Assembly (NCBI GenBank): GCA_965204345.1
Contig: OZ241981.1
Span: forward strand, 128,001 to 192,000
Source of the DNA: Nitrosopumilus sp.
GTDB taxonomy: Archaea; Thermoproteota; Nitrososphaeria; Nitrososphaerales; Nitrosopumilaceae
DNA length: 64,000 nucleotides
Reading direction: 5' to 3'
The translations under genes and the position numbers were made by a program. Positions 33,753-59,530 of the stretch are shown here, piece after piece. Numbering within the stretch: the first letter of the stretch is position 1; each line of letters starts with the position of its first letter. A model generated the notes under the pieces. That model saw nothing but the letters and a program-made list of their open reading frames with translations, was not told the origin of the DNA and ran no database searches.

Positions 33753-35995
33753 TTGAATTTAAAAGTAACATTGCCGATGATAATTTTCTCACTAGTCCTC
33801 CTGTTTGCATATCCTTTAGATTCTGCATCCTAGACTGATGATGAGGATGCACAGCTTGCAGTGCCAGGCAATCTTATCCCGGCTGAGAATACATTAGGTT
33901 CTGTTGCAAGTGTGGATGTACCACCCAAGTTTGATGGCGGCTTTTATGGCAAAATCCAGGCCTCATATCTGAGGTACCCCAAGATGGCGACTATGGGGTA
34001 CATGACGGCACGCGATACTATGATGTCCTAATTATAGTGGCCAGAAGTGATGGTATAGATGCAGATGAGACAGCGCGCAAGAACAAGGATGCAATAGTAC
34101 AGAGACTTGATCTTCTTGGCGCACGTAACATAGCATCTGCAGAGTCACTCTCATTTGTGACTGCATCCATCCCAGTTGCAGACGTTCTGGGACTCTCACT
34201 TTATGACGAGGTATATGCCATGGGAGATGGTGAAATTCCCGTGACTCTGGAGATTGATACGGCTACGGGAACCGTACATGCAACTCCCGATGAGATTCAT
34301 ACTGCGACTGGCACAAATCTTGATGGCAGTGGAGTTGTTGTGGCAATCATTGACAGAGGCATCAACCACGATATCGCATTTATGGGCAGAATCGATGGGC
34401 GTGTAGAGTGCGATGATACGTGTGAGCCTGCAACTGCTGATACTGTGATCGGCGTTAATAGTACTAATCATCTTTCTCGTAATTTTACATCCCATGGTAC
34501 GCATATAGCCCAAATCCTTGCCGCATCAGGACTGCCTGCTCATAACGGCATTGCCCCTGGTGTAAAACTTTTGGATGCCTCAATTACCAGGCACAGTGTA
34601 GATGACGATAACAACCGTACCTTCATTAGTGCAAACAGAAATGACGTGGCACATGCCCTTGACTGGTCTCTCAAAAAAGGAGCCGACATGGCAGTCATGA
34701 GTTTTGGTTTTGGAATCTGCAGTGGAGATTATGGAAAGACAACCAACCTCATCACAAATGAGGCAGTTGACAAGGGAATGGTTCTAGTATCATCTGCAGG
34801 AAACAGGGGCATAATTTATGGAGCGCCAAACCAGCCAGTTTATCATCTATATTCTGATATGTTTTGTATATGCAATAATGGCATAATTTATGGAGCGCCA
34901 AACCAGCCAGTTTATCAGTCTATAACTCATCTCGGATGCGGACACAATGAAATTACCGTAGGCGGAATAAATGATCGTGGTCAAACAATAACAAGGGCAG
35001 ATTTTTCAGGCATGGGTCCCGTACCCGGAACAGTCCTGCTAAAGCCTGAGATAGTTGCACCTGCACATCATATTCAGACACTGGACAATGTTGCAGAAGC
35101 TGACACTTTTAGTCCTCGGTCCGGAACCAGCCTTGCTGCTCCCCAGGCAAGTGCAACTGCTGCCCTGTTGCTACAGGCAAAACCTGATCTGACCCCAGTT
35201 GAGATAAAGACAATACTTCTTCTTGGGGCTGACTGGCAGGGTCCAATCCCTTGCACGTCTGCACAGTATGAAAAAAACAATTCCACCGACAACTGTTCTC
35301 ATGCCAGACAGCCCTCGGATCCTTTTGAGGCAACCAATGTTGCATCCCTTGGAATACTAAACAATGTGGGCTTTGGCATACTAAACACAGCAGAGTCACT
35401 CAGGTATGCTCACAGTGAATCATCCCATGTAATGTCACACTATCTAAAGTCAGATACGCATACAAAGCAGTACGAGTTTGACGTACAGGACACATCAAAG
35501 CCAGTCAAAGTGATACTGTCATGGCTGGTTCATCCGCATGGCAGTATAACCGGACAGTTGACGACTAATGATACAGCAGTCCCTATTACCAATCTTGATT
35601 TTACAATATTGTCTCCGGATAATGCTACAATACAGGCAACATCATCCCACCAGACAAACGAGTTTGCAGTGTTTGCCCCCACTCTACTAGGAACATACAC
35701 CATAACAGTTAGCGGCTCTAACATTGATAACATAAACAAGCCTGTACAAAACTTTGCACTGGCAAGTACCAATCCTCTTACACTTGTAGGTGACAGTATA
35801 CTGGAGAGAAAAATAGAGAGATACAACTCTACACAAATCAGAATTACAGATATCACAGAAGACATTAAACAGTTAGAGCAAAAATTACAGGACAAAAAAG
35901 ACAATCTGGCAGAACTAGACTCGTTACTTTCCAAGCTTTATCTGCAAATTATAGAATTGGCCCCTGATGGTTACGAATTTCCATTCAAGGATTGA
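33753..35995 (+). pseudogene. S8 subtilisin-like protease; catalytic part open (34037-35995) but signal/pro region broken by TAG at 33831 and a frameshift near 33960
   Basis: IIDRGI, SHGTHIA, SAGN, GTSLAAP triad motifs; upstream frame reads LKVTLPMIIFSLVLLFAYPLDSAS*TDD... Confidence 0.78.
34808..34917. repeat. 38-bp perfect direct repeat around a 34-nt insert
   Basis: ggcataatttatggagcgccaaaccagccagtttatca at 34808-34845 and 34880-34917. Confidence 0.97.
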
Positions 35996-36621: not shown

Positions 36622-39600
36622 ATGCCCACACTATCTATGGCCGGAATTGCAGTGTCTGGATTTTTGGTTTTGGTTGCCGTGATGATGATAATGGCAGTGA
36701 TGATGCCAGCACATGCTGCAACCTCGGACTCGCCACTTGACCAGCATCATGCAGGCATACCAATAGATGGGATTCAGTGCAATGACGGCAAGCTTTTGAT
36801 GGTGAACCTTGCAGGCAAGCCAGTTTGCGTAACTGGTGATTCTGCCATGAAATTAGGAGACGGGGGCAGCAGCGGCAGCAGCATATATGCCACGACGGCA
36901 CACACACCAGAAACATCCCAAAAAGCCAATGAACCTTTAAGTGAAAAGATCACAAGCCAGACAGACACGCATGTATTTACTGACAAAGAAAAGCAGATTA
37001 TCGCTGATTACAAGAAATCTTCAATATTATCATCACCTGGAATTCTTATACACAGTTATTCCTTAGATCTCTCAGAATCACCCAAGGTGGGCCAAACTGC
37101 TATGATAAACTTTACCGGTATCTACACTGATAATACAAATTTTGAGCCATACATGGAACCATTCACGCTAAAAGTATTTGCCAATCCTGGTGACAAAGTT
37201 TTGTTTCATGATGATGCAGTAACAAATGCAGGCTCTGATGATCCAACCATCTTTGTGCCATTTGATAATAAAGTCGGATATGTAGTAGATGAGCCCGTGC
37301 CGGGTAGGGCTTATACCGTGATGGTTACTGTAGAAATTCTAGAGGAGGGATTTATTGAAATTGACGCATTGCGCTTTGATTCTTTAGAATCCCGTGGCGG
37401 TGTCTACCTTGCAATATCTGATGAATATTCTATATCAGAAAATGAGTATATGGATGAGGGACACACATTTTTGGATCACATCATTTTAGCTAGGGCATCT
37501 AGTTCTGAATCTTTTGCACCTCAAGAAGATAGCGGACTTGGCAATGAAGCGAGGTCTGAGGATGAGATAGTTGATGAGGTTTTGACGGATAAAAGAGTAG
37601 CTGAAATATATGCCAACCACCTGCGACTTTTGGGTGAGATAGTTGTCAATGATATTGGCAAAGTCAATGACGATTTAATTGGATGGCTTGCTGATAAATC
37701 CCTTCCATTAGATGATGTAAAAATTATTTTGAGACACTCTAATTTCACGCAGGCGCAAGTAGATGATGTAATGGAGAGATACGAGGCAGATTATACTGGT
37801 CCCCCGGATATGACGGATGGTGAAGCAACAGCAGCAGCAGCAGCAACAACAGTAGTAGCAGCAGCAGCAACAACAACAACAACAACAGCAGATGGCTCCC
37901 CCACAGATACCGCTGCTGCCCCAGCATTCCCCGTAGCTGCAACTCAGGAGGCGTCTGTTGGTGCAGCAGAAGACTCTTCTTCCAACACTTTTTCCATTGA
38001 AGGCACCGTATCTGCTCAACTTTATCTTTCCCGCACCACGCAACCCATCAACGGGATAGAAGTCTGTGCCTATGATCAACTTGGATCTACCCGTAGTGCA
38101 TTGACTGTATTGCTTACAACTGAGGGTGAAGATGCCTGCACATTTACATCCAACAGGGGAGAATATCGCATAGATTCTATCCAAAATGATGATCCTGATG
38201 ATGAATCAAATGTTGATCTAGTTATCAGAGTTAGTTCCAGGGGTTCAAATGATTTAGTCGTGCATGGTATATCTGGTGTTTATATAGAGTCATCTACCAG
38301 AGTTTTGAACTTTAGTGATGATACAAGAATGTTTGATTTTGTATTGAACGGCCGTGATGCAAGAGCATCTGGTATAATCAATGCAATCTCTGATGGCCGT
38401 GATTTTTTTAGTCATCACGGTATTCCTCCTGAGGAGCTTACTGTAAAGTGGGAGTATCGTAGACTTGCTAGTGTTTTTCCAGACTATACCCGTAACAATG
38501 CTGGATATATACTATCTGCGAACACCATATTTCTTAGCAGTTTTCCTTCTATCGCTGATAATGCTTTACACAAAGATCTCATATTGCATGAATTTGGCCA
38601 CTATATTATGGATATACAAGGTGTATTTCCATTCCTGCTGCGTTGTTACACTGATCTAAACAATGATGGTGATTTTGATGATATCGGTGAGACATCTCAT
38701 TATCTTCAACACCCAACTAATCGTACATGTGCATGGACAGAAGGTTGGGCTAATTTTGTTCCTAATTTAGTTACCAATTCGTCAAGTTTCGATAGTACCC
38801 CTTTTGGTATTATTAATTTGGAGCAAGACAGACAACAGTTAACTACTAATAACTTTATAGATTTTTTACCCGTAGATGACTTTGATCTTATTGGAGAACT
38901 CGTTGAAGGACAGGTAGCCGGAGCGCTATGGGATATCAAAGATCATAACGTTGATGAAATATTTGACAATTTAGAACAAAGCAGTAACGGTACTAACTTA
39001 GATAACCTGCAATTAGGCGATGATGAAATTATTGATGTATTTAAGAATGGAAGATATCATAATTTTAGAGATTTCTATGCTGCATGGGAAGATACAGAAT
39101 ATGATTCTTCATCTGACATTATGAGACTTCACCACATGAACTTTGCAATCCCAAACGATCTACCCCCGCCATCAAACATAGTGACTGACAGTTTTAACAC
39201 GCTTGACAATTGGAGTCAATCTGGCGCCTCTTGTTCGGTTCGCATCTCTGAGATTTGTTTTAACACGCTTGACCATTGGAGTCAATCTGACAATGACATG
39301 TGGGAGATAAATAGTGCCCACAAAACCATTCCAGATTCTGCCAGCGACAATACGGTGGCAACATCTAGCAACTGTGGTTCCGCTTGTTTTATTACACTTA
39401 ACCAGCCACTAGACATAAGAGAGCCTCTTGTAGTATCCTTTGATAGATTTGTTGATAGGAGAATTAACTCAGATGAAGGTCTGTATGTGCAGTACATGAC
39501 AGACTCTAGATGGGTGACACTGGCACAATATACTGGTATGAATGGGAATAATACCGACAACTGGCACTCTGAAGCCCTGACACTTAGCCTACGTGATCAA

Positions 39601-42600
39601 TCACAGACATTACTGCGATTTGTGGCAGACTCAAGCGGAGACAATGAATTCGTAGAGATTGATAATTTTAACATCTCGCCACTACCATTCACATTTACAG
39701 CCGGATTTACAACCGAATTCGTCATTACTCTGTATTTCCCTGTAGGACATGATACTAATTTTACAGCAAGTGATTTTAGCCTGTCTGAGGGAGCAATCAA
39801 CTCTATTAGTGTTAGTCGCAATGGCGAAATATTGCGCATGTTTACATCAGGCATTCCATATAGTACGCCAGTTACAGTAACCTATGTTGGTTCTGATTTT
39901 GGTTTTGATGGCAGTGATTCACAGTCACGCCCCACAGCCACCGTAACCAACTTCGGAAGGCCAGATAGATCAACCTTTGCTGATATCACTTTGCGTAACG
40001 GAGAGACCCGTACTGTAAGCGTGTCTGCACCCAATGCCGACCATGGACCAGTTTCATGGGACCTATTAGAAGCTCCAGACTTTGTCAGCATATCCCGTAC
40101 TGGTAATGGTACGGCAGACGTTATCATCTCTCCGCATAACGCCACCGTTGGCACTTATCTTGTTCGGGTATTCGCGGAGGTTGTCTCATTTTCTGGTCGG
40201 TCAATAGATATTCATGTAACTATTGACGACGGCGACGACAATACTGACCCGCCAGATACCACAAACCCTGTAATTACTGCTCCTGCTGATCTCACTGTAG
40301 AGGCTACCGACATTCGTACACCTGTGAATACTGGTACGGCATCAGCTGCAGACAATTCAGGTCCAAGCCCTGACATAACTCACGACGCACCACCAGACAA
40401 TTTCCCACTTGGCCCCACAACAGTTACATGGACTGCCACAGATGCTGCAGGAAACACAGCTACTGCAACACAGACGATAACCGTACAAGACACAACACCG
40501 CCTGCAATACAAAAGCCTGAAGATATTACAGAAGAGGCTACCTCATCACTAACTGCAATACAGCTGGCAGACCCCACAGTAACAGATATCTTTCCTTTTA
40601 CCATAAATAGCAACGCAACTGCATCGTTTCCTCTGGGTGATACCATAATCGCATGGACTGCCACTGACGAATCTAGGAATATCTCTACAACAACTAGTAC
40701 GGTAACCCTAGTGGATACCACTCCTCCCACAATAGTACAGCCTGCACCAATAACTGTGGATGCCACAGCAGAACTTACACCCGTATCAATAAGCGCGCCA
40801 GCTGCAACTGACACGGTGGACTCAGGCGTTGTTGTTGCTGTAACTGACAGTAATACTGCATCATTTGCCGTTGGAACACACAACGTGGTATGGACTGCCA
40901 CAGATGATTCAGGAAATACCGCAACTCTCACACAGACAGTTACTGTCAGGGATGCAGTCCCAACAGACCCTCCAGACAATCCTGATACCGTTACCCTAAC
41001 CGTCTCTGTAGCTACAACTGCAGGTGATCTCACCAACCTTGCTACGGTACCATTTACGGCAACATTCAACAAGGATGTTGTCTTTGACCTAGGTGACATT
41101 ACAGTAACTGGTACTGCAAATGACGGCAATCCCACAGCATCCAACCTTGGCAGAACAGGCAGTATCTACACCTTTGATGTGGCACGCGGCTCCACAGACG
41201 GAACCGTGACCGTATCCATAGATGCAAACGCGCTAACAGACTCTGCAGGCAACCCCAACACTGCATCTGCTCCAGTTACCGTCACCATAGACACCCTTGC
41301 CCCGGCAGTCTCTGTAACTTCGTCTGCAGGCAGCCGCACCGGACTTGATACGGTACCATTTACAGTAGAATTTAACGAAGACGTTGAGAACTTTGTCCTA
41401 GATGACATTACAGTGACAGGCGATGCCAACGGTGGAACCCTTGCAGCAACCGGCTTTGAGACAGTTGATGCCCGCACATACACCTTTAACGTTGCAGGCA
41501 TATCCTCAGACGGAACCGTAACTGTATCAGTTGCAGCAGATGTGGCAGCAGACCTTGCAGGCAACCCCAACACCGCATCTGCCCCAGTTACCGTCACCGT
41601 AGACACCACAGTCCCATCAGTATCACTGGACACAACTGCTGCTGATCCTACCAACTCTGAGGTCATACCATTTACTGCAATCTTTAGCGGCAATGTCACA
41701 GGATTTGAGCGGTCTGACATCGTTGTGGCAATTGACGGAACCCAGGTATCTAACTCTGAGATTAGTCTTGACCTTGGAGGGGAAAATTCCGTTGTTGTGT
41801 CAATTGGCAGTACACAGGCATCAGATAGCCTGATAACTGCCTTTAATGTAATTAATGGCACCCATTACAACTTTGCAGTCACACACGGGATCACCACAGA
41901 TGGCAAGCTAGCAGTAAGCATACCTGATGGTGTGGTGGCAGGGGGCAACACGGGTGCCGTACATACTATTACGGTGGACATGGTAAACCCATCCGTATCT
42001 ATCACGCCTGCTGATGGCACCACCATTACTGGTGATGACCCTGTAACGTTTACTGCAACATTTGATGAGGACGTTGAGAACTTTGAGCTGGATGACATTA
42101 CAATAGCGGGCACTGCCAATGGCGGCACCCCCACAGCATCCAACATTAATGGAGAAGGCAGTGTCTACACCTTTAATGTGGCACGCGGCTCCACAGACGG
42201 AACAGTAACCGTATCAATAGGTGCAGGTATGGCAGCCGACCTTGCAGGCAATCCCAATGAGGCATCTAATTCAGTTACCGTCACCATCAGCACCACAGGA
42301 GATGAGATTGAGGCAGATATCCCCTCTGGAGGTGATGGTGGCGTAGTGACATATGAGCCATCCTCAAATCTGATCACCCTCAACGTGGTATCTGACACAT
42401 TGCCTGACACAATTATTGCCACTGATGGCCAGCTGCTTGACTTTAATGCCACCCCCACGTTTGCTGATGATGCTGCAAGCGGAGTAAAGAGTGTGAGAAT
42501 TTCTGATTCTACAACTGAGGTTATCACTGATGTCTCTGATTCCCAAACTGTATCTGTCACTTATCCAGCAGGTATAGTTGTAAACGGTTCATCAAATGAT

Positions 42601-44295
42601 TGGAGTGGCACCATTGCCGTTCCAACCCTTGTTACTGCTGGCACTGCTGTTGATCCTCCAGCCTCAAATGACGAGATAGGACTGGCATTCTCAGTCGGTG
42701 ATGGCAACACCAGATTAACATTTGATCAGGCAGTCAGGTTACTCTTGCCTGGCCAGGCAGACCATGAGGGAGCCTTTTTCTCAGGAGAGGATACAGATGG
42801 CAACGTGATATCACGATCACTGGTTGTGTGTCCGTTTGTTCCTGTCAATCAGACTACTGCCAATGACAATATTGGAGCTGGCACTGCGTTGGAATCCTGT
42901 TTTGTTCGTGATGCTCCTGATATGATCATCTGGACCACGCACTTTAGCTCATTTGGCTCATTCTCTACGGTTCCTGTAGACCCTACACCATCCACACCTT
43001 CTAGTAGCCGCAGTAGTAGTGGTGGCGGTGGCGGTGGTGGCGGTGGCGGTGGCGGTGGTGGCGGTGGCGGTACCTCCTCCTCCTCCTTCAGCGGCTCATC
43101 TGCTGCAAACAATGCCTCCGAAGCTGTTTTGTACGACGTACAGTGGGATGTCTGTGAGGCAAACACAATCAACGTAATAGCTGGTCCTGTAACTGACAGT
43201 CTCTCTGTAAAGCTTAGAACCAACGCAGGCATAATCACGGCAGAACGCTCTGATGAGCAGCCCTATACTGGAAGAATCTCATTTGATGCAAGCCTCTCAC
43301 CAAACGAGTCATTTGTACGCGTACATGTGGAAAATATCGCAGCAAGGGGAATATCAACTGATTCAAAGTCATTTAACCTCACCGAGTGTTCTGGTTCTGT
43401 ATCTGTAAACACATACGAGTTATCATCATCGCCTGTTATTACCGGTGGCAGTGCAGATGTAACACCTGATCTGCCATCCAAAAAAGCGGATTTCTCAGAT
43501 GACATTATCATGCCAGGCCCCATCCAAGTACAAACGCCTGACATAATACGTGAGTTCCTCAACGACTTTGCAGATATTACCAATACTAACACGGGTATGA
43601 AACTCACTGAATTCCAGACACTGCAATCAAACCCTGACAGATATGCCAAGACCGTCCTGGGAATCAGCGGACAGACAGTTACCACAGTTGCATTGGCAGA
43701 CAGACCCATCTCAGAGGAGAGTAACAACAACAGTGCAAACCTCTTCTTGCAAATCTCATCCAATGGTGAGAAGGTCAACTCCATGAGGGGCGTTCTCTTG
43801 GGAGGTGACACCATTGAGATTGTGGCAGGAGACAAAAGTAAGATCATCGTTCCAACATCTGCAGAAATTGCAATTGCATCTGGGGATGCAAACGTGACAG
43901 TATCTCAAAAATCAAGCATGAAAATTAATGACGGATCAACGCAGGTTGATCTGCCAGACGTGCTCAGAGAATTCCTAAATACCAACATTGAATTTACAAA
44001 CGAGGATACCGGTGAGGCACTAACGCAATACGTGGTGTTGCAGTCAGTACCAGATGTGTTTGCAGAAAAAGAACTTGGAATCTCAGGACAAACCGTAACT
44101 ATCATCGCGTTCCCAGACAGGTATGGCAGAGCAGACAGCAATGATGACCTGAATGTCTTTGTACAGTTTACGCACACTGATGAGCAGGTCAACTCTTTGA
44201 GAGGCATCCAGCAGGGCGGCAACGCAATCAGCGTTAGCACCAACGGCGCTGAGCAGGGAACACTGACACAGACAGTAGAGATTCCGCTGGGCTAG
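36622..44295 (+). CDS. giant secreted protein: SPLxQ module, Ala/Thr linker, gluzincin-type metalloprotease, jelly-roll, HYR x3, Ig-like (Big) repeats, poly-Gly linker, duplicated C-terminal domain
   Basis: signal peptide; LHEFGH (38587) and AWTEGWANF; HYR and FTATFxEDV...DLAGNPN repeats. Confidence 0.88.
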   Translation: MPTLSMAGIAVSGFLVLVAVMMIMAVMMPAHAATSDSPLDQHHAGIPIDGIQCNDGKLLMVNLAGKPVCVTGDSAMKLGDGGSSGSSIYATTAHTPETSQKANEPLSEKITSQTDTHVFTDKEKQIIADYKKSSILSSPGILIHSYSLDLSESPKVGQTAMINFTGIYTDNTNFEPYMEPFTLKVFANPGDKVLFHDDAVTNAGSDDPTIFVPFDNKVGYVVDEPVPGRAYTVMVTVEILEEGFIEIDALRFDSLESRGGVYLAISDEYSISENEYMDEGHTFLDHIILARASSSESFAPQEDSGLGNEARSEDEIVDEVLTDKRVAEIYANHLRLLGEIVVNDIGKVNDDLIGWLADKSLPLDDVKIILRHSNFTQAQVDDVMERYEADYTGPPDMTDGEATAAAAATTVVAAAATTTTTTADGSPTDTAAAPAFPVAATQEASVGAAEDSSSNTFSIEGTVSAQLYLSRTTQPINGIEVCAYDQLGSTRSALTVLLTTEGEDACTFTSNRGEYRIDSIQNDDPDDESNVDLVIRVSSRGSNDLVVHGISGVYIESSTRVLNFSDDTRMFDFVLNGRDARASGIINAISDGRDFFSHHGIPPEELTVKWEYRRLASVFPDYTRNNAGYILSANTIFLSSFPSIADNALHKDLILHEFGHYIMDIQGVFPFLLRCYTDLNNDGDFDDIGETSHYLQHPTNRTCAWTEGWANFVPNLVTNSSSFDSTPFGIINLEQDRQQLTTNNFIDFLPVDDFDLIGELVEGQVAGALWDIKDHNVDEIFDNLEQSSNGTNLDNLQLGDDEIIDVFKNGRYHNFRDFYAAWEDTEYDSSSDIMRLHHMNFAIPNDLPPPSNIVTDSFNTLDNWSQSGASCSVRISEICFNTLDHWSQSDNDMWEINSAHKTIPDSASDNTVATSSNCGSACFITLNQPLDIREPLVVSFDRFVDRRINSDEGLYVQYMTDSRWVTLAQYTGMNGNNTDNWHSEALTLSLRDQSQTLLRFVADSSGDNEFVEIDNFNISPLPFTFTAGFTTEFVITLYFPVGHDTNFTASDFSLSEGAINSISVSRNGEILRMFTSGIPYSTPVTVTYVGSDFGFDGSDSQSRPTATVTNFGRPDRSTFADITLRNGETRTVSVSAPNADHGPVSWDLLEAPDFVSISRTGNGTADVIISPHNATVGTYLVRVFAEVVSFSGRSIDIHVTIDDGDDNTDPPDTTNPVITAPADLTVEATDIRTPVNTGTASAADNSGPSPDITHDAPPDNFPLGPTTVTWTATDAAGNTATATQTITVQDTTPPAIQKPEDITEEATSSLTAIQLADPTVTDIFPFTINSNATASFPLGDTIIAWTATDESRNISTTTSTVTLVDTTPPTIVQPAPITVDATAELTPVSISAPAATDTVDSGVVVAVTDSNTASFAVGTHNVVWTATDDSGNTATLTQTVTVRDAVPTDPPDNPDTVTLTVSVATTAGDLTNLATVPFTATFNKDVVFDLGDITVTGTANDGNPTASNLGRTGSIYTFDVARGSTDGTVTVSIDANALTDSAGNPNTASAPVTVTIDTLAPAVSVTSSAGSRTGLDTVPFTVEFNEDVENFVLDDITVTGDANGGTLAATGFETVDARTYTFNVAGISSDGTVTVSVAADVAADLAGNPNTASAPVTVTVDTTVPSVSLDTTAADPTNSEVIPFTAIFSGNVTGFERSDIVVAIDGTQVSNSEISLDLGGENSVVVSIGSTQASDSLITAFNVINGTHYNFAVTHGITTDGKLAVSIPDGVVAGGNTGAVHTITVDMVNPSVSITPADGTTITGDDPVTFTATFDEDVENFELDDITIAGTANGGTPTASNINGEGSVYTFNVARGSTDGTVTVSIGAGMAADLAGNPNEASNSVTVTISTTGDEIEADIPSGGDGGVVTYEPSSNLITLNVVSDTLPDTIIATDGQLLDFNATPTFADDAASGVKSVRISDSTTEVITDVSDSQTVSVTYPAGIVVNGSSNDWSGTIAVPTLVTAGTAVDPPASNDEIGLAFSVGDGNTRLTFDQAVRLLLPGQADHEGAFFSGEDTDGNVISRSLVVCPFVPVNQTTANDNIGAGTALESCFVRDAPDMIIWTTHFSSFGSFSTVPVDPTPSTPSSSRSSSGGGGGGGGGGGGGGGGGTSSSSFSGSSAANNASEAVLYDVQWDVCEANTINVIAGPVTDSLSVKLRTNAGIITAERSDEQPYTGRISFDASLSPNESFVRVHVENIAARGISTDSKSFNLTECSGSVSVNTYELSSSPVITGGSADVTPDLPSKKADFSDDIIMPGPIQVQTPDIIREFLNDFADITNTNTGMKLTEFQTLQSNPDRYAKTVLGISGQTVTTVALADRPISEESNNNSANLFLQISSNGEKVNSMRGVLLGGDTIEIVAGDKSKIIVPTSAEIAIASGDANVTVSQKSSMKINDGSTQVDLPDVLREFLNTNIEFTNEDTGEALTQYVVLQSVPDVFAEKELGISGQTVTIIAFPDRYGRADSNDDLNVFVQFTHTDEQVNSLRGIQQGGNAISVSTNGAEQGTLTQTVEIPLG
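37824..37890 (+). repeat. (GCA/ACA)n trinucleotide tract, poly-Ala/Thr linker
   Basis: gcaacagcagcagcagcagcaacaacagtagtagcagcagcagcaacaacaacaacaacaacagca. Confidence 0.9.
39191..39289. repeat. 33-bp direct repeat (1 mismatch) around a 33-nt insert
   Basis: gttttaacacgcttgac(a/c)attggagtcaatctg at 39191-39223 and 39257-39289. Confidence 0.95.
43021..43071 (+). repeat. (GGT/GGC)17 poly-glycine linker
   Basis: ggtggcggtggc... flanked by Ser runs. Confidence 0.95.
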
Positions 44296-49671: not shown

Positions 49672-50264
49672 CTCCTCTTCTCCTTTACTTGGCTTATGAA
49701 ATTCCCCAGAATTTTTTTGCCGTCTTCAGTCATTATTGACTCTGGATGAAATTGCACGCCCTGAATGAGGTATTCTTTGTGCTCAATGGCCATGACCTCG
49801 TTATCATCAGATGCCGTTGCTATTACTTTTAATACTTTTGGGATTTCTGTTCTGTCTCCGACCAGACTGTGGTATCTGGTTGCTCTAAACGGGTTTCTTA
49901 CGCCTGCAAATAGTTTTGATTCCTTATAACTGACAGGACTTGTTTTCCCGTGTCTTACATGTCCTGCATTTGTTACCTTGCCTCCAAACGCATCAATAAT
50001 CCCCTGATGTCCCAAGCATACCCCTAAAATTGGCATCTCTGATCCCATATCCTTGATTACCTTGGAGCATACCCCAAAGTATTTTTCATCTTCGGGGGTT
50101 CCGGGACCTGGCGAGATTATTACTGCATCGTAATTTTTTTCCTTGATTTCTTGCAGCGTAATCCTGTCATTTCTAATCACATCACATGTTACTCCTAGTT
50201 CTCCTAAATATTGTGCAATGTTGTATACAAAGGAATCATAGTTGTCTATAATTAAAAACTTCAA
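49668..50264 (-). CDS. trpG: anthranilate synthase component II
   Basis: IDNYDSF, SPGPG, GVCLGHQ, QFHPES. Confidence 0.96.
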   Translation of the reverse strand: MKFLIIDNYDSFVYNIAQYLGELGVTCDVIRNDRITLQEIKEKNYDAVIISPGPGTPEDEKYFGVCSKVIKDMGSEMPILGVCLGHQGIIDAFGGKVTNAGHVRHGKTSPVSYKESKLFAGVRNPFRATRYHSLVGDRTEIPKVLKVIATASDDNEVMAIEHKEYLIQGVQFHPESIMTEDGKKILGNFISQVKEKRR

Positions 50265-51610
50265 CCTGATGACTCCTTTAGTGCCTGAAGCATTGCATCT
50301 GCCTTGTGTTCTGTTTCCTTGAATTCGTTTTCTGCAACAGAGTCTGAAACAATTCCTGCTCCTGACTGGAGAAAACCCTTGCCGTCTTCTATGAATATGC
50401 TTCTAATGGCTATTGCAAAATCACAGCATCCGTTATATGAAAAATAGCCTACAGCTCCCGCGTATGGTCCCCTTGCCTCTGTTTCTAATTCGTCTATGAT
50501 CTGCATTGCCCTCACTTTTGGTGCCCCTGACACTGTTCCTGCCGGAAATACTGCCTCAAACGCATCAAACATGTCTTTTTCAGGCGCTAAATTCCCTACC
50601 ACATGGCTTACAATGTGTTGGACATGACTGAACCGCTTGATCTCCATTAGTGATTCTGGATGAACCGTTCCATATCTGCATACTCTGCCAATGTCGTTTC
50701 TGCCCAAATCAACTAGCATTGTATGTTCTGCCAACTCCTTTTCATCATGAATTAATTCCTCAGATAATCTTTTGTTCTTTTCTTCATCATCTGTAATTTT
50801 TCTAGTTCCTGCAATTGGAAATGTTTCTACCCTGTCCCCTGTAATCCTAACTAGCATTTCAGGTGATGCCCCAATTATTGTCTTGGTGTTTTGTTTTAAG
50901 TGATACATGTATGGTGATGGATTTAGCTTCCTTAGTGTTTTGTATAGCGTCAAGTCATCTCCCACCGCATCAAATGTAAATTTTCTAGACAGTACCACTT
51001 GAAAAATATCCCCATCATGAACGTATTTTTTTGCTTTGTTTACCATCTCTGAATATTTCTCCTTGTCCATATTTGCAGTCACATCGCCTGAATCAAAGTC
51101 TCCAAAGGAACCATCACTCATAACCAATTCATTGAACCTGTTTTTATCATAGTAAAAATAAAATAATTTCTCACGAATCTGATCATATATTATGCCGTCA
51201 TCATAAATCCCAAATTCCATTAATGGCTGTGGTGAATTGTGATTATCTGCAATGTCCTCTACTAGTCTAACTGCATCATAGTTTACTACTCCTACAGCTC
51301 CTCCCAGATACCTGTATTTCTGATTGTCTGACTTTGCCAATATCTTTTTTAGTTCTGAAAACGGTTCTGATGTTTTAATGGTTTGCGTGTTGCCATCCTC
51401 AATAATCTCTACTTTGTCTGAGTAGCCCTTTAGAATTATTTTAGGATCAAATCCCATCACTGATGTCTCAGCTAGTGCTTCTGGGCCTGTTAGTGATTCA
51501 AAGAGAAACGAATGCAAGTAATTTCTTGATATTTTGTTATAAATTTGAAATTGGTTTTCAGACAAGTCTAGTGGTACTACTTTTGCCTGAATATTTCCAA
51601 AGGTGTCCAC
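50261..51610 (-). CDS. trpE: anthranilate synthase component I
   Basis: GDIFQVVLS, EHTMLVDLGRND, GTVSGAPK. Confidence 0.96.
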   Translation of the reverse strand: MDTFGNIQAKVVPLDLSENQFQIYNKISRNYLHSFLFESLTGPEALAETSVMGFDPKIILKGYSDKVEIIEDGNTQTIKTSEPFSELKKILAKSDNQKYRYLGGAVGVVNYDAVRLVEDIADNHNSPQPLMEFGIYDDGIIYDQIREKLFYFYYDKNRFNELVMSDGSFGDFDSGDVTANMDKEKYSEMVNKAKKYVHDGDIFQVVLSRKFTFDAVGDDLTLYKTLRKLNPSPYMYHLKQNTKTIIGASPEMLVRITGDRVETFPIAGTRKITDDEEKNKRLSEELIHDEKELAEHTMLVDLGRNDIGRVCRYGTVHPESLMEIKRFSHVQHIVSHVVGNLAPEKDMFDAFEAVFPAGTVSGAPKVRAMQIIDELETEARGPYAGAVGYFSYNGCCDFAIAIRSIFIEDGKGFLQSGAGIVSDSVAENEFKETEHKADAMLQALKESSG

Positions 51611-51707: not shown

Positions 51708-51724
51708 TACCGTATAGTACGGTA
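51708..51724. promoter_or_regulatory. palindromic putative operator TACCGTA-tag-TACGGTA
   Basis: perfect 7-bp inverted repeat next to TATA-like tttatag, between divergent trpE and the small Zn-finger gene. Confidence 0.5.
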
Positions 51725-51749: not shown

Positions 51750-51947
51750 ATGATTGCCATGCCAGGGGTAAATCAAACAATCATGCAAGACATGCTGATT
51801 CTAAAAAAGCAAACAGCATCCACTACAGTAAGCAAGGTTGAATGCTATGTTTGTGGCAAGGGATTGCAGGACGGTCATTCCATTACTGCAAGAACGCTGC
51901 CAAATGGAATAGCCTTGTTCTGTGATGTCCACTATTATCAACAATAA
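51750..51947 (+). CDS. small Zn-finger-like protein (start uncertain)
   Basis: CYVC...FCDVH; last codons derive from the insert at 51937. Confidence 0.7.
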   Translation: MIAMPGVNQTIMQDMLILKKQTASTTVSKVECYVCGKGLQDGHSITARTLPNGIALFCDVHYYQQ

Positions 51948-52007
51948 ATGCAAGGATACAGAGCTAATGGCCAAATGGAATAGCCTTGTTCTGTGATGTC
52001 CACTATT
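51899..52007. repeat. 38-bp perfect direct repeat around a 33-nt insert
   Basis: gccaaatggaatagccttgttctgtgatgtccactatt at 51899-51936 and 51970-52007. Confidence 0.97.
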
Positions 52008-54648
52008 TGCTGCAATAGCTAAAAACATCAAAGAATTCCTTTGCACCATTTTTAGTCAATTCCTTATTTTTTGTTTGGCAATAGTTTGTAGTAAATGTGC
52101 ACTTTGGACAACCTCCCCAAACTTTTTGGTCTGCCTGTGTTTTATCTGCTGGACAGTCACAATCCCTTAACAAAGAAAGCCCTGCGGCCAATATTTTTTC
52201 AAATTCATCATAGATTATTTTACTGCACCCATTAAATCCGTCTGATGAGTTATCATAAAGGTAAATCACTCCATTTTCATAGTATGCATCAATATCACTT
52301 GATTCTGATTTTGTTAAAATTTTGCTTGCGTTCACTAGCATGTGTGTGATGGTATGCATCCTGGGATCACCGGCTATGGGATTTTTGGAGTCTGCTGCTG
52401 CCTTTGATATGAATTCTGCTGGTATCGTTACACTGGTTGCCGAGTGTCTTGATTTCCAATGAAAATTCCTCCATCCCGATATGCTGCTGCCATTATGCCT
52501 GGTAAATTTATCTGCTGATTCATTATAGTTTCCCTTCATGTATCCTGTAATTGTTCTATCCAGTGAAATTATTCCATACCGCAAAGATATTTTTTTATTC
52601 TTTACATTAATCTCCCTGTGCCTTGTTTTGCCTTCTGATGTCTGAATAACTGCCGTTCTGAGAATTGGAAATGTCTTCTTTCCCCTCTCACTTGATCTTA
52701 TCAGATATGCCCTTGCCCCATTTTGTGATTTTATTAACGAGCTTACTTCATAATTCTGCTTGTTAAAATGATACATTGCCTTTTGATGTAACTGATAGTA
52801 CCCTGCAGGTACTGCCCTGGTTCCAATTTTCATTGAATTATGGTATATGGAAATCTCGCCTGATGCCCCTCGCAAATTAACACTGTTTGCAAAATCAAAA
52901 AATTGGGATTTGTCTGATGTTGCCGCTGCCTCATCTTCAATTTCGACGGATTCTGCATGCCTCTCTGCGATTATCGGATTCCTCTTGTTGATTGGAACGA
53001 TGTGATCCTGTTTTAGATACTCATCAATATGGCGTGCAAAATAATGACAAGCTGCATCTTCTGGATCAAAGACGCAGATGGCATATGATTCCTGTCCCAT
53101 GCGTCCTGCCCTTCCGATTCTTTGAACAAACGAGTCAAATTCGTTTTTGAATGCAGAAATTACTACATCCACATGCCCTATGTCAATTCCCAACTCTAGC
53201 GTCGGCGTACATGACAAAACATCCAAGTCTCCTGCCTTCATTTGGGACTCGTACATTTTTCTGTCCCTTTGATCCAGCCCTCCTCTGTGAATCTGAATTC
53301 GTATCCCTTTGTTTGCTGTTTCCATATTTGATGCCAGAAATTCTGCGTCATTGTGTGAATTGCTAAAAACCAGCTGTGTTGAATTATTCCTGTGGCAGAT
53401 GGATGATAGCATTTCCATGGTTGTTCTTTGCCTGAACTTCCTAGGCATGATAAAAAACATGTGCATGTTTTGTTTTCGCCGAAACTTACTTTTGATATAC
53501 CTAAACGAGTCCTCAGGCAGATCAAACATGCTGGAAAAAAATTCCTTTGAATTATCCAGCGTTGCAGACGAGCCTACAAACTGCACCTTGCCCATGAATC
53601 TTTTCATTCTTTTTAGAACATGATATACGTTTGATCCGTGAAAACTCGTATACGAATGTGCTTCATCCATGACAATTATTTTTGCATTTTTGAATAACTC
53701 GTTCCATTTTTTATCCTGCAGTATTAAATGATAATTAATAAAATCAAAATTCGTTGCAATGATTAGAGCCTTTTTGCCAGACTCCAAAATCACCATGTCT
53801 TTGTATTCTGTACTCTGGCCTCCGTGAATTGAATATGCTGAAACCCTGTCTCCAAGATCACATTTTTGAATCAGGTCGGATATTTTTGAGATCTGATCAT
53901 CAATTAACGCATTTGATGGATATACCAGCAATGTGAATACTCCTGATGCTGAATTTTCTGTGATTTTTTGCAGTATTGGGATTGCAAATGCTTCTGTTTT
54001 TCCAGATCCTGTGGGCGCTGAAATTATTGTATCCCCTCCACTTAGAATTGCTTTGATGGATTCCTCCTGAAATGGGAGTACCCCTGCAAAGCCATATTTT
54101 TCTAGACCCTTTATGATATTCTCAGATAAGATGTCTCTGAGATTTGCAATTGGAATTTTTTCAGACTCTGAAGCAACTAATCGCTCATAATGGATTAATG
54201 CCAGGGATTCCTCTTTGTGGCCTTGAATTATCTCTCTAATTATGTAGTTATTATCAACTAGTGATTTTGGAATCTTGCTAATATCAAAAAGAATATCCTG
54301 AGGAATTAAAATTTTGGGTGCCGGATCTTTAGTTTTTGTTTTCACATGTTTTTTAATTTCATCTGGAAAGTATTCTGCTGATTCGCCGGAGACTGTGCAT
54401 TGATGGGGCTCATCTGTTCTTGAATCAATGGGGATAAATTTTCCACTATCTGATTTGAACCTCTCATCCCAGTAAATCTCTGCCCCGCATCCTTTGGAAC
54501 ACTGTTTTGTTCTTCCTGAATAGTTTACTCCATATGTTGGAGCTTTTACCATGATTTTTTCAGGATTGCACTTGGGACATATTCTCGGAGATCCTACATC
54601 CTCATGGCTTTGAACCAGTCTTGTATCACAGTCAAAACAAAATTTCAT
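52003..54648 (-). CDS. DEAH-box SF2 helicase with C-terminal DUF1998 (MrfA/Hrq1-like) and N-terminal Zn ribbons
   Basis: APTGSGKT, DEAH, TLELGIDIG, QRIGRAGR, YLYD...G...CDC...GCPKC. Confidence 0.92.
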   Translation of the reverse strand: MKFCFDCDTRLVQSHEDVGSPRICPKCNPEKIMVKAPTYGVNYSGRTKQCSKGCGAEIYWDERFKSDSGKFIPIDSRTDEPHQCTVSGESAEYFPDEIKKHVKTKTKDPAPKILIPQDILFDISKIPKSLVDNNYIIREIIQGHKEESLALIHYERLVASESEKIPIANLRDILSENIIKGLEKYGFAGVLPFQEESIKAILSGGDTIISAPTGSGKTEAFAIPILQKITENSASGVFTLLVYPSNALIDDQISKISDLIQKCDLGDRVSAYSIHGGQSTEYKDMVILESGKKALIIATNFDFINYHLILQDKKWNELFKNAKIIVMDEAHSYTSFHGSNVYHVLKRMKRFMGKVQFVGSSATLDNSKEFFSSMFDLPEDSFRYIKSKFRRKQNMHMFFIMPRKFRQRTTMEMLSSICHRNNSTQLVFSNSHNDAEFLASNMETANKGIRIQIHRGGLDQRDRKMYESQMKAGDLDVLSCTPTLELGIDIGHVDVVISAFKNEFDSFVQRIGRAGRMGQESYAICVFDPEDAACHYFARHIDEYLKQDHIVPINKRNPIIAERHAESVEIEDEAAATSDKSQFFDFANSVNLRGASGEISIYHNSMKIGTRAVPAGYYQLHQKAMYHFNKQNYEVSSLIKSQNGARAYLIRSSERGKKTFPILRTAVIQTSEGKTRHREINVKNKKISLRYGIISLDRTITGYMKGNYNESADKFTRHNGSSISGWRNFHWKSRHSATSVTIPAEFISKAAADSKNPIAGDPRMHTITHMLVNASKILTKSESSDIDAYYENGVIYLYDNSSDGFNGCSKIIYDEFEKILAAGLSLLRDCDCPADKTQADQKVWGGCPKCTFTTNYCQTKNKELTKNGAKEFFDVFSYCSK

Positions 54649-54914
54649 GAATATGATTTAGATCAATTTGCCTTTAATGAACATATGATATTATATGATT
54701 ACCTTTTGATGCCTAGAATATCAAATATGCTTAAACTTGTATCTGTATCCTCTCAGGACGCATTTGGAGAGGACCGTCACCTTCATCAATATTTACAGCT
54801 GGGGGTTGCAGCCAGTACAGCATCATATTTGACAAATTCTGATTACCTAATCGCTGGAATTTAACATCAGGTTCTCAGATGTGATTTTCTTAAAAATTAC
54901 CTGGACTATACGAC

Positions 54915-55210
54915 ACTGGCAAATTCCGGCGTCCTCTGCATGAATCACCCAGGAAATCTCTGTGTTGCACTGGGATTTTTTGATGATTACCGCAGTATGT
55001 TGTGTTCTTTGAGAATATGTTCAGTCCAGAAACAAGAAGACAACGCCTAACTGCCAAGCCATATTTACAAAATATCATAGACTTGAATCAAATGACTTCA
55101 TTCTAAAATCCTGAAAATGCCAAACTAGGAAAGAAAGATCAAAGCGGCAAAATTTAGGTACAAAACCACTGATTTTATTAAACAAAATAGAGTAAAACAT
55201 ACAATAAACA
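54915..55210 (+). repeat. dispersed repeat copy
   Basis: collinear with 15751-16090. Confidence 0.7.
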
Positions 55211-56539
55211 GATGTTTGTGTGTGATATTATGGGATTTATGAAGACCTTAGGAAAGTTTTGCATTATGAAAAAAGTTCGTGATAAATCCAACGAACCTGA
55301 AGAAAAATAATCCTATTTTTTTAAAAAAAATCAATCTTGAGAAATCTCATGCAATCCATTTTTTGAATGCGTCTGATAACTAAAGTAATGGCAGCAGATG
55401 ATTCTGAGGGGATGAGACTTGCTTAGAGATTAGCCAAGGCTGGCAAACATGATGCAGTTTTACGGGCAATTTCATGTCTCTGAAGAAAAACAACTTTTGC
55501 CGGTTTCATCAGCTCCTGCCGGCCAAATTTTGCCATTGAACTGCTCTTGCAATATGCGATATGGCGTGCGACTCTTTCTGATTACCATAATGTCATATTT
55601 TGCCAATGATAAAACAAAATTTCCCTCAAATTCCCTGCACGAGTATAGCGTAAAATCATCAATCTCTTTATTTGATTTTGTAATGCTTGCAATATTCACT
55701 GATGTCTCAACATCTGCCCTTCTCAGCATCCCTGACTCTGCTTTGCCCTAACACTGGGGACATTGCACCGAATTTTTTGCATCAATGCCGCAAATTGAAA
55801 GTTTCATTAAAATCGACTTTTCGTTCTTACAATCTTGTTTATATAATTGGTGTAAAATACTGGTTAATTGCTTTTATTGAGCAATGGCATTTCTGCAAGA
55901 AAATAATTACTCTCTATGGATAACGCTCCATCACATTGACATAGCTTGCATTTTCCATTGACAATTTGTGAGTTTCTGCCTGCTGTGATTGTGTGGTTTG
56001 TAAGTGAATGCTCACATTTAGAACAGACACTTTTTTGTTCCACGCCAATTCAGACTCTTATAGTCTCCATACTGTCTTCTTGTTGTTAAATTTTTGTTGT
56101 CATATCTTGTACTGTTGCTTCTTGGATAGCGGTTTGCTGGGTGCATATGATAGTATCATACCTGGGGTCAAAAAGCGGATTTAATAATTGCTGAGGTGTA
56201 CTTTGGGATTTTTTGATGACTGGATATCTAAGAAAATCATATCTTGACAATTTATTATCAAATTCCAGTAATCAGATCATCAAAATGTACCAAACCCGAA
56301 TTGAACTGTCCTATGAAATGTCTGGGATTTGGAACAGCATGAAATTTATTATTACATTCTTTGCACTTGTGCTCTTGATTGCCAAAATCAGGAATTTCTT
56401 GAAAGGCTTGAAACTGCTGAAATAATGTTTATGGACAATAAAAAAAATTGATATGCATTGTAAATTGCTTGAAAAAGAAGCATGCCGTAACTCAATATAA
56501 CTGCTTAAATAACGAAAGCACATAGGGGTTGATAATAAC

Positions 56540-56818
56540 ATGAACAAAAATACAAAAACTATGCCGTTCGCTTCTTTGATTGCTGCAATGATTCTTCCTT
56601 TCTCAGTAATCAATTATGCGCAAGCAGAACAGCAGGGAGGTGTGATATGTGACCCTGACATATCAGAGTCAGAATGCATAGAAAACGCTCCAACTTATTC
56701 AATTGACGGTATATCGCTTATTGAATTGGTACCTTTCATTCCGTTATTTGTGGTAATAACTGTCTCCATTCTTATCATTGTTTTATATTTGATAAAAATC
56801 AAGTATGATAATGGCTAA
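56540..56818 (+). CDS. small membrane-anchored secreted protein
   Basis: FASLIAAMILPFS...AQA signal, two Cys, C-terminal TM helix. Confidence 0.6.
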   Translation: MNKNTKTMPFASLIAAMILPFSVINYAQAEQQGGVICDPDISESECIENAPTYSIDGISLIELVPFIPLFVVITVSILIIVLYLIKIKYDNG

Positions 56819-56829
56819 TGATAATTCAA

Positions 56830-56905
56830 AACGTAAAATTTTATGCCTAAATTCCGTCACTTTAATTCTTTTCTAGTTTAGTGGACTTGAAAAGTCTCTA
56901 AGATT
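56830..56905 (-). repeat. dispersed repeat copy (short)
   Basis: reverse complement ctaaactagaaaagaattaaagtgacggaatttaggcataaaatt. Confidence 0.65.
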
Positions 56906-57100
56906 AAACAGTACAGGATATCAAGATTTTCTGCTTTAGATCATGCATTTTTGACAGACACAACATTTCATAGTATATAGGACACCTGATCAGAGGCAGC
57001 TAGGATAAAACGCATGAGAATGTTCGTCTGGCTTGTGTGAATGAGAGTTCATTCACACTAGTACCAAGTTCATCCAAGCATAATATTACAAAATTGGGTC

Positions 57101-57565
57101 TTGGCCACAATTAAAAAATTATTAGTCAAATTATTCTCCTTTCTTATTGTGCCATTAGACAAAATGCCCAATTCTGAAGAGTTTATTCCAACCCATAATT
57201 CACTAATTTTACACATAAAAGGCAAGCCGGTGGCATGCATAATTGACAAAAGCATTCAAAACAGATCCAAATTTGATTCTGCAAGTAGCGATTCCATGCT
57301 TAAGGCTAGTCTTGTCGGATTTTTAAATAAACATGACGATTTGGGGCTGTTGATGGGTTTCAAATTAAAAATTCAAATTAATGATGATCTTTTTGAGTAC
57401 ACTGTATATCCAGATGATGAGCTTATAGACACTGTAATCTTTAACGAATCCGTATTCATAGTTAATGATAAGCTTGAAAATCTTTTTTCTTTAAAAAAGA
57501 TAGTCACTGATCAGCTTGTAAAAACCAGATCAGAATTTAATAAATTTAAAAAATTAATTAGCTGA
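57101..57565 (+). CDS. conserved hypothetical protein (start may be MPNSEE at 57164)
   Basis: protein-like ORF with host-like composition. Confidence 0.65.
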   Translation: MATIKKLLVKLFSFLIVPLDKMPNSEEFIPTHNSLILHIKGKPVACIIDKSIQNRSKFDSASSDSMLKASLVGFLNKHDDLGLLMGFKLKIQINDDLFEYTVYPDDELIDTVIFNESVFIVNDKLENLFSLKKIVTDQLVKTRSEFNKFKKLIS

Positions 57566-57986
57566 TCTTCTTTATTTCAGATCATTTAACAACCCCTTTT
57601 TATGTAAAATTTCCAGTGATAACTTTTTTTACGAATGCTAAAAGCTAGAAAACCTGCTCTTTTGGACCGTGGGATGGACTTGGTATCAAACAAAATTTGA
57701 TAATGTCTGCCCGTCAATTAGTAGAGTTTTGTCTGCTATTGCACCAGAACATAAAAAATGGACTAGCAATGTGGAGAGAAAATGAACCTGTCCATGAACA
57801 TTACCAAACAGGCTCAAAATACTGGAATGCAATCTCATAAAATTAGTGAGAGGATATTTGTCTAATTATCCTTAGAATAGTTTGTTCTGCTACCTATTGC
57901 ACAATTAGGCAGTCATTAGTTGGCAGTGAAAATAACAAGGCAGAAACTTGTCAAAACATGTCTCTTGAAATTTTGGCAGCTGATCT

Positions 57987-58337
57987 TCAGTTATCCCACG
58001 TTGGCTGGGATTTTAGCCACGTAATCAAATCCATATACAGGCTGCTTTTGCTCATGTTTAGAACCCCTATCTCCAGATTTGTTGAGGATTTGACTGTTTT
58101 TGTATAACTTTTATATTTTGCAAAAATTATCTTATCTAAAAACATCTCATTTTGCATCTCTTTTTTAGCCAGTTCCTCAGATTCTGTCATTGCAAAACTA
58201 GCAAACAGTACGCCATCGGCCCAATACGCATTGGCAGCTTCAAGTGACGACATCATTCCGATGAGATCATCCAAGCTTAGTTTAATGATGTCTCTGACGT
58301 AAATTTTATCATATGGCTTGTGAACAAACTCTGTCAT
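57987..58337 (-). CDS. conserved archaeal hypothetical protein
   Basis: YWADGVLF motif, intact ORF. Confidence 0.7.
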   Translation of the reverse strand: MTEFVHKPYDKIYVRDIIKLSLDDLIGMMSSLEAANAYWADGVLFASFAMTESEELAKKEMQNEMFLDKIIFAKYKSYTKTVKSSTNLEIGVLNMSKSSLYMDLITWLKSQPTWDN

Positions 58338-58407
58338 GAAACTGCCTTCTCTTATCGTCTAATGAACATTATGGAAATCTTATATCTAGTTTTTATACAA
58401 AATTATT

Positions 58408-58641
58408 ATGGATGACATGGATGGTGCCCCTAACTACGATCTATTTGTAACAGATTTTCCAAAAAAAGGTTTTGGGATTGTTGACTATCTTCAGGGCAGG
58501 GTGCATTTTGCCCTGCTTGATCAAATCAAACTCATGTCCAAATCTGGTATGGGCAAGCCTGAAATTAAAGAAACGATACTTGCAAATATTGCTCAAATTA
58601 TAGATAACTTTGAACCCGAAAAACAATCAAATAATTCTTGA
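58408..58641 (+). CDS. small hypothetical protein
   Basis: ATG after TATA-like ttatat; divergent from 58337 gene. Confidence 0.55.
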   Translation: MDDMDGAPNYDLFVTDFPKKGFGIVDYLQGRVHFALLDQIKLMSKSGMGKPEIKETILANIAQIIDNFEPEKQSNNS

Positions 58642-59009
58642 TTCCATTTTAACTGACTCTGCCATAACTATCTTGTGGCATTGGCAGTGGCAATTTGTGT
58701 GCGGCAAATCACTGTTCATTCTGTATTTGCATTCTTTGGTGTGCTCTGTATTCAATTTTTTTGATTCCTACTGGGCATCTGTTGCTGATGATTTGCATTC
58801 AAAATACTCTGTCAATGACTTGCTAAAATTTTCCAATAATTGATGATCCTTGAAATTCGAATCTTCAAGCAGCTTCCAGTTTTTTTCGATTGATTCTTTT
58901 AGAACAAATAATGTCCTTTTATCGTCACAATGCATGTTGCTGTCATCTTAATACGGCATTTAATATTTATTTTCGACATGTTTAATTATCAAAAATATAG
59001 TTTGATATC

Positions 59010-59530
59010 ATGCCAAAGACCGAATACGAATCAGGATTGTTTCAAAGATTGATAAAGATGATGTAATTGGCAAGAGACTAGGAGCCATATTATCAGAGTT
59101 GAAAATAGGTGATACTGTCACTACAAAATCACTTTTTTGCAGGCACAAGGACATTCTTGGATTTAAAAATGACAGGTCTATTATCTGTCACATTTCAAGC
59201 GCACTAAAAATTGCATGCAAATCAAAAAAGATTCAAAGAACAAATGATTTTGGGCCTTCCCCATGATTCAAAAGTCTGGATACCGTGTCCTTTTGGACAT
59301 CACAGCTCTGCGAAAGCAAATTCAAGAATCATGACAGAACCGCCACCAATATCTGCTGTACCCAAACAATGTACCTGTATCACATAGGAAGTTCAACATG
59401 TGGGTGTCTAAAAGAGAATTTGCAATAAATATGCTCCAGGCTGTCAGTGATAACACATTTGCGCAAAAGACAGAACAAAAGAAATTTGAGAATGGGAATC
59501 CCTGCTAAAACTTTTGGAGCGGCGGTTCTG
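59010..59530 (+). pseudogene. fragmented gene resembling the N-terminus of thaumarchaeal tyrosine recombinases
   Basis: frame-broken IRIVSKID...LDTVSFWTSQL...TQTMYLYH..KFNMWVSKREF; recalled similarity only, no catalytic motif seen. Confidence 0.4.

Follow-up and report, generated by a model that had tools for sequence, protein, structure and literature searches.

Three short repeat-flanked insertions in a 64-kb Nitrosopumilus window as candidate products of off-target CRISPR-type integration

Known products of short-DNA integration

A fixed-size insert standing between two copies of the same sequence is the expected product of a staggered two-strand integration followed by fill-in, as in CRISPR adaptation and in transposition. 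Cas1-Cas2, the integrase of CRISPR adaptation, inserts a ruler-sized fragment of about 33-35 bp with duplication of a target of about 30-38 bp and, to our knowledge, it is the only known enzyme that pairs a cargo of about 33-35 bp with a duplication of such length. Single-spacer mini CRISPR arrays exist on mobile elements, and their repeat is a genuine CRISPR repeat that also occurs in a host array. Off-target spacer integration and neo-CRISPR arrays, together with candidate natural cases, were reportedly described by Nivala, Shipman and Church in 2018.

Archaeal CRISPR repeats are reported to be 23-44 bp long (PMC12195208), and archaeal Cas1-Cas2 is described as performing full-site integration at non-CRISPR sites in vitro (PMC6698737). 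According to the available accounts, off-target sites favour G, and those published resemble the native repeat or the leader junction (PMC6698737, PMC6895254). The fidelity of integration is said to depend on host DNA-binding proteins, with HU or histones suppressing off-target events (PMC13769266, PMC13748974). In vivo, off-target integration is reported for E. coli overproducing Cas1-Cas2 (PMC7054753, 10.1101/148544), and the natural neo-CRISPR cases, from two other species, are presented as circumstantial (10.1101/148544).

Two other systems come close. The family 1 casposase of Nitrosopumilus is described as generating a 13-bp sequence-specific duplication, acting on elements with terminal inverted repeats, and integrating short oligonucleotides in vitro (PMC8464041). 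The element NitEve-E2 of Nitrososphaera evergladensis is reported to lie in the 3' end of a Zn-finger gene (AIF83914), the TAG of which is replaced by the element's own TAA (PMC6563490).

The window considered here, i.e., the whole 64-kb stretch of Nitrosopumilus DNA analysed, includes three scars designated F1, F2, and F3. Like neo-CRISPR, each consists of one insert of spacer size with a copy of the same non-CRISPR genomic stretch on either side, and the first duplicated base is a G. They differ from the E. coli cases as three of them stand in 64 kb of a natural archaeal genome, in protein genes, and at mutually dissimilar targets. A functional CRISPR array has a shared repeat, several spacers, and a leader, whereas three different two-copy repeats of coding DNA are found here. 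The size of the repeat-spacer-repeat unit is the same as in single-spacer mini arrays, but the "repeat" here encodes protein and occurs only once in orthologues. The family 1 casposons, as described, belong to the same archaeal family and are similar in their Cas1-family chemistry with target-site duplication and in their use of short DNA, whereas the scars display duplications of 33-38 bp and inserts deprived of inverted or common ends. As in NitEve-E2, the direct repeat of F3 occupies the 3' end of a small Zn-finger-like gene, and the TAG is displaced by an incoming TAA; the att site of NitEve-E2 is given as 13 bp with a multigene cargo, whereas F3 has a 38-bp repeat, a cargo of 33 nt, and sister scars in the middle of genes (PMC6563490).

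The junction between the small gene and the helicase

F3 is located at the 3' end of a small conserved Nitrososphaerota gene (51750..51947, plus strand, 65 aa). This gene is surrounded by core-genome neighbors: on one side the anthranilate synthase component I gene, first of a divergent trp operon (50261..51610, minus strand), and on the other side an intact helicase gene of 881 aa with DEAD, Helicase_C, and MZB domains according to Pfam and the ORF list (52003..54648, minus strand), which we take to be Hrq1/MrfA-like. The small protein carries a CxxC...CxxH motif and is a putative zinc finger; the Pfam scan matched it to no family. Its single-sequence fold was poor (pLDDT 49) and was disregarded. 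Its Cys/His positions, which resemble metal ligands, are invariant in 34 aligned sequences and are unaffected by F3. Between the divergent starts of trpE and the small gene, a perfect inverted repeat with 7-bp arms (51708-51724) may be a regulator site.

The window repeat scan revealed an exact 38-bp direct repeat (51899-51936 and 51970-52007) with a 33-nt insert between both copies (51937-51969), precisely as reported in the first-pass annotation. Copy 1, read on the plus strand, encodes PNGIALFCDVHY, and the insert provides the new final codons and a TAA stop at 51945-51947, with the result that the small ORF now ends in FCDVHY-YQQ-stop. In the phase of the small gene, copy 2 (plus strand) reads PNGIALFCDVHY-LLQ-stop, i.e., FCDVHY-LLQ-stop, with its end at 52018. 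This former end, LLQ-TAG (52008..52018, plus strand), is stranded and today read only as helicase antisense. Copy 2 also includes the helicase stop codon (52003-52005, minus strand), as had been claimed, and both the small gene and the helicase stay open, in agreement with the earlier statement that they survive the 71-nt insertion. The same annotation considered that the C-terminus was rewritten. Its sequence is indeed changed and the old TAG is replaced with TAA, but the change extends to two residues only (LL to YQ) with the length of the protein unchanged, and the consequence for the small gene is minor. The new stop falls on the ancestral codon, which is expected in 3% of random inserts, and in 0.1% if a preceding Q is also considered. 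Promoter and terminator scans found nothing particular to the F3 insert.

The ancestral state was sought in 65 GTDB loci carrying helicase relatives (60-84% identity), nearly all from Nitrosopumilus or Nitrosopumilaceae, the source species not being among them. The small gene is present in 33 of these 65 loci, is convergent with the helicase in 28, and directly abuts it in 4 of the 28. Two of these four aligned loci, L011 and L042, have a 16-bp gene overlap equal to that of the window minus its extra DNA, and align to the window across the junction with one gap of exactly 71 nt. They display the single copy that had been anticipated for the orthologous junction. In the other 24 convergent loci, 129-8320 bp separate the small gene from the helicase. 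Taken on its own, the stop-to-stop distance in the 28 loci (L001-L042), ranging from -16 to 8320 bp, points to a hotspot of gene gain and loss.

The C-termini of the homologues tell the same story. Among 118 homologues parsed out of 120 listed, 105 have three residues after HY and 115 have L as the second of them, whereas the LLQ end occurs in 5 and the YQQ end in none. It is copy 2, not copy 1, that runs on into the conserved x-LQ-stop. The earlier statement that removal of the insert and one copy restores an HY-LLQ end overlapping the helicase is consistent with these ends and with the 16-bp overlaps. No locus possesses two copies of the F3 target within 200 nt among the 12 matched by the 38-mer, no second protein-level match exists in the 33 loci with the small gene, and the best match of the insert in the 65 loci is 22/33. 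The small protein of the window is itself absent from the 120 matches listed, the best of which is 79% identical. As two related loci show the 71-nt gap and some of the parsed homologues end in HY-LLQ but none in HY-YQQ, the F3 insertion is the derived state, and the duplication and insertion are almost certainly both real and derived.

The first-pass annotation also viewed F3 as a hit in non-island DNA. This holds insofar as the conserved gene hit by F3 has the trp operon on one side and the helicase on the other, and the site is, on that ground, not island DNA; on the other hand, the junction in relatives often holds extra DNA.

Two sister scars and the properties of the inserts

The label of F3 in the first-pass annotation, "Footprint 4", implied four scars, but the scans yielded three clear ones (34808, 39191, and 51899), and no fourth scar of the same geometry was found by repeat scans of the 64-kb window. 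F1 (34808..34917, plus strand) consists of 38-bp copies at 34808-34845 and 34880-34917 around a 34-nt insert (34846-34879) and adds 24 aa in frame to an S8 peptidase ORF (34037..35995, plus strand). This gene copy is damaged upstream: compared with paralogues, its 5' part (33750-34036) is interrupted by an in-frame stop near 33831 and shifts frame near 33957, and it is probably a pseudogene of an expanded mosaic family, several S8 paralogues being encoded on the same contig. F2 (39191..39289, plus strand) consists of 33-bp copies at 39191-39223 and 39257-39289, differing by one mismatch, around a 33-nt insert (39224-39256). It adds 22 aa in frame to a HYR/Ig-like surface protein of 2557 aa, the gene of which (36622..44295, plus strand) is open throughout.

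The three events are of like size, with inserts of 34, 33, and 33 nt and duplications of 38, 33, and 38 bp for F1, F2, and F3, respectively. As chance end-matches can shift 1-2 bases between repeat and insert, only the sums (72, 66, and 71) are exact. When 30-nt windows with at least 24 matches at a distance of 45-110 were counted, 3 were obtained in the window versus 0 in each of 100 block shuffles. The related loci, amounting to 1,033,790 bp, contain no such scar versus 3 in the 64-kb window (p 2e-4), after 19 locus rows were set aside (13 due to tandem 21-mers, the other 6 to matches that were short, degenerate, or tandem). At the protein level, 196 related proteins (197,252 aa) were scanned, setting aside P0367 (low complexity), P0328 (period 27), and rows from tandem arrays; only P0001 and P0010 were retrieved, and the 194 others had none. 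Given its absence from the relatives' DNA and from these 194 proteins, the process is restricted to this lineage as far as sampled. In P0328, a distant relative, the 13-residue two-copy repeat of period 27 is a longer scar-like pattern seen at the protein level.

Empty sites exist for both sister scars. The 24 residues of F1 are found only in the window protein and P0010 among 40 aligned homologues, and the close paralogues P0002, P0004, and P0009 lack them with identical flanks. P0010 carries the identical 24-aa insertion on a 1,166-bp contig from a different source and is 87% identical. As it is a mosaic of paralogues, P0010 may be a chimeric assembly, for which reads with the insertion would still be required. 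For F2, the empty state is displayed by P0123, in which the 22 aa are missing as a clean alignment gap. Neither the F3 nor the F2 allele was encountered a second time among the matches listed, which did not return the 2557-aa protein. Survival of the reading frame by chance is about 0.19 per event and, since the F1 gene copy was already damaged upstream, only F2 counts as a sign of reading-frame selection, for which this survival is weaker support than it looks.

Some other candidates were set apart. P0014, a paralogue ending inside the F1 target, is more simply explained by a nonsense codon, as inferred from the protein, than by a second insertion. The repeat at 41720-41820 in the 2557-aa gene (23/30, distance 72) looks like an internal protein repeat, an old scar being possible. 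The 20-bp direct repeat at 36294-36313 and 36576-36595, with copies 282 bp apart, has a geometry unlike that of the three scars; lying upstream of the 2557-aa gene, it possibly marks a small insertion with target duplication.

The inserts are mutually unrelated (p 0.36-0.85) and include no terminal inverted repeats. No second copy of any of them is present in the window, where the best alignments reach 21-22 matches, and no significant match was obtained in the window or in the 65 related loci. Such a lack of relatedness, second copies, and inverted ends is expected of spacers but not of transposon ends. In phages, the three inserts gave best E values of 1-4 or no match, and the F3 insert gave no significant match in plasmids. 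The database search of the F3 insert proposed in the first-pass annotation was carried through for phages, plasmids, and the 65 loci, and no source was found there.

The targets are mutually dissimilar as well (p 0.21-0.92), their sole common feature being the first G: each has G as its first plus-strand base (p 0.007, or 0.047 for either strand; post hoc). They are not unusually hairpin-forming and fold no better than random sites. Rfam gave nothing at the gathering threshold in the window, with chance-level matches only at the three scars and no CRISPR repeat family.

A last property links inserts to their surroundings. Within the first 12 nt of the insert, a run matching the downstream target flank is found in F1 (6 nt, p 0.004) and F3 (5 nt, p 0.03) but not in F2, with a combined p of 0.004 for a statistic chosen after inspection of the data; a gapped-alignment test of insert versus flank was significant for F1 only. 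In register, the inserts match the downstream flank at 7-13 of 33-34 positions, which rules out a decayed tandem duplication for F2 and F3 and leaves F1 borderline. The longest words shared by inserts and surroundings are 8-10 nt within 3 kb and 10-12 nt in the whole window. If its flank match is included in the repeat, F1 may be redrawn as about 45+28 with a 1-nt deletion, a less uniform geometry.

Elsewhere in the window, a unit of about 1925 bp stands three times in tandem (3100-8900), with 82-89% identity between the units. Every unit contains a gene for a secreted-type protein of 423-425 aa without Pfam family, which is split in unit 1, and after it the 5' part of a HYR-protein gene. The latter is truncated in units 1 and 2 and continues after unit 3 as the full 8579 ORF. 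This very large HYR/fn3/Ig-like locus (8579-15696) shares 73-87% identical DNA blocks with the second one (36622-44295), which also includes a Gly run and an Ala/Thr-rich tract. Given the expansion of S8 and HYR proteins, a host-associated (sponge) lifestyle may be guessed for the source organism. Beyond the helicase, about 8 kb of lower-GC DNA (54650-62600) carries many short ORFs, six of which were scanned without any Pfam match, and is followed by a Schlafen AlbA_2 protein gene (62608-63771).

Candidate mechanisms and their significance

The three scars have, in our estimation, about an even chance of being off-target spacer integrations by a CRISPR Cas1-Cas2-type integrase, i.e., neo-CRISPR events. 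Each scar would result from a single integration event in which about 33 bp of unrelated DNA was joined to both chromosome strands at cuts staggered by about 36-38 bp, and fill-in repair would then have duplicated the stretch between the cuts. The scars seen would be the tolerated ones, standing in ordinary genes. At 51899, copy 1 would have remained in the small gene, the insert would by chance have brought a stop where the old one had been, and copy 2 would have preserved the helicase stop. Integration at staggered cuts, the enzyme responsible, and a foreign source of the inserts are inferred; the exact duplication of a pre-existing non-CRISPR target around a single insert, with empty relatives, is observed.

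The insert length falls in a narrow spacer-like range in 3/3 scars (33, 33, and 34 nt), a small number in which F1 can moreover be redrawn, and the sizes of the scars are within the reported range of archaeal CRISPR repeats. CRISPR-Cas is described as patchy in sponge-associated Nitrosopumilaceae (PMC6697440, PMC9289680, PMC7848895), which fits scars restricted to one lineage. The window itself includes no CRISPR array, and no cas gene was found among its 43 ORFs scanned with Pfam. The dissimilar targets, the unequal duplications (33 versus 38 bp), the lack of an insert source, and the flank matches count against Cas1-Cas2. Plain spacer integration predicts neither the matches between insert and flank nor the F3 stop at the ancestral codon. 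Both features speak rather for template switching, for a partly homologous donor or, in the case of F3, for selection that maintained the former length.

Template switching, or homology-assisted repair, would involve no integrase: a strand would leave after the target, copy about 33 nt from a loosely pairing donor, and return to the start of the target. Insert starts matching the downstream flank near the junction in 2/3 scars are consistent with it, as are targets with no common motif and the loss of uniform geometry once flank matches are counted as repeat. On the other hand, no local template is apparent from the short shared words, the inserts are not decayed tandem copies (with F1 borderline), and 1.03 Mb of relatives contain no such scar. 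Furthermore, such repair is not expected to yield periods of 66, 71, and 72 in three events. This explanation is rather unlikely.

The second alternative retains integration but attributes it to an unrecognized non-CRISPR integrase, a Cas1 relative or another staggered-cut enzyme, taking ruler-sized short DNA with little target preference. The geometric evidence supports it in the same way as Cas1-Cas2, and targets without shared repeat-like sequence suit a relaxed enzyme. In addition, Cas1 is reported more widely than Cas2 or Cas3 in sponge Thaumarchaeota (PMC9289680). Nevertheless, the casposases characterized so far are described as duplicating 13-14 bp, normally with terminal-repeat ends (PMC8464041), and no candidate enzyme appeared among the 43 ORFs scanned, which makes this a distinctly unlikely origin.

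For F3 alone, the remnant of a site-specific element may be considered, as the first-pass annotation did in naming an att site as a competing reading. The 38-bp copies would be attL and attR at the 3' end of the zinc-finger gene, with 33 nt left including the replacement stop. The TAG-to-TAA swap recalls NitEve-E2 (PMC6563490), the new stop stands at the ancestral position, and the junction is variable in relatives. In one relative out of 33, L004, the final 18 nt of the orthologue recur at a distance of 2.7 kb, with NYN and SNase genes in between. In its own right, this 18-bp direct repeat (L004 5063-5080 and 7758-7775), which corresponds to the orthologue end and flanks 2.7 kb with NYN-domain and SNase-like genes, delimits a candidate small integrated element, in which no integrase is found among the listed ORFs. 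As a precedent for F3, the L004 repeat contains the stop and overlaps the 38-bp target by 7 nt only, whereas 32/33 relatives have no second copy of at least 14 nt. Thaumarchaeal att sites are moreover described as short, with a median of 17 bp and 7/68 above 25 bp (PMC6563490), and 33 nt are all that lies between the F3 copies, where an att-flanked element has an integrase and cargo. It would also take a coincidence for such a remnant to match in size the mid-gene 38+34 and 33+33 scars. The att reading has to be given some weight for F3 but is very unlikely.

An assembly or library artefact is highly improbable. No second data set showed the F3 allele, the small protein and the 2557-aa protein both being missing from the matches listed, and in-frame survival argues little given its chance rate and the damaged F1 gene copy. 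Against an artefact stand the three inserts, all different, the one-base difference between the F2 copies, and the identical F1 insertion in P0010, from another source although maybe the same biological material, since even a chimeric assembly needs reads with the insertion. Finally, the reverse polarity, in which the single-copy state is derived and the insert is ancestral intergenic DNA, is hardly credible at all: most relatives do carry DNA between both genes, but this possibility, also raised in the first-pass annotation, is contradicted by the 71-nt gap, the C-termini with their conserved end after copy 2, the absence of paired copies, and the poor insert match in the 65 loci.

Off-target spacer integration is thus far mainly a laboratory phenomenon, known from the test tube and from E. 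coli overproducing Cas1-Cas2, and its natural relevance is described as unclear in one source (10.1101/148544). What would be new is its density, about one per 21 kb in a window of a natural genome. The literature searched, in which few subscription papers are represented, yielded no description of such scars either at this density or from Nitrososphaerota. If the frequency of 3 in 64 kb is extrapolated to 2.04 Mb, about 96 scars are expected (95% range 20-279). It may tentatively be proposed that the lineage carries a low-fidelity Cas1-family integrase scattering spacer-sized foreign fragments chromosome-wide, neo-CRISPR formation being then a routine natural process. If true, this enzyme would be an endogenous insertional mutagen that adds loops of 22-24 residues to secreted proteins and records captured DNA outside arrays. 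Dozens of scars in a natural genome would reveal which targets the CRISPR integrase prefers in vivo and how often it errs; the origin of new arrays from misfires would become directly testable, and CRISPR adaptation would prove mutagenic for protein genes. Should this organism have no cas1, the scars would instead point to an undescribed short-DNA integrase.
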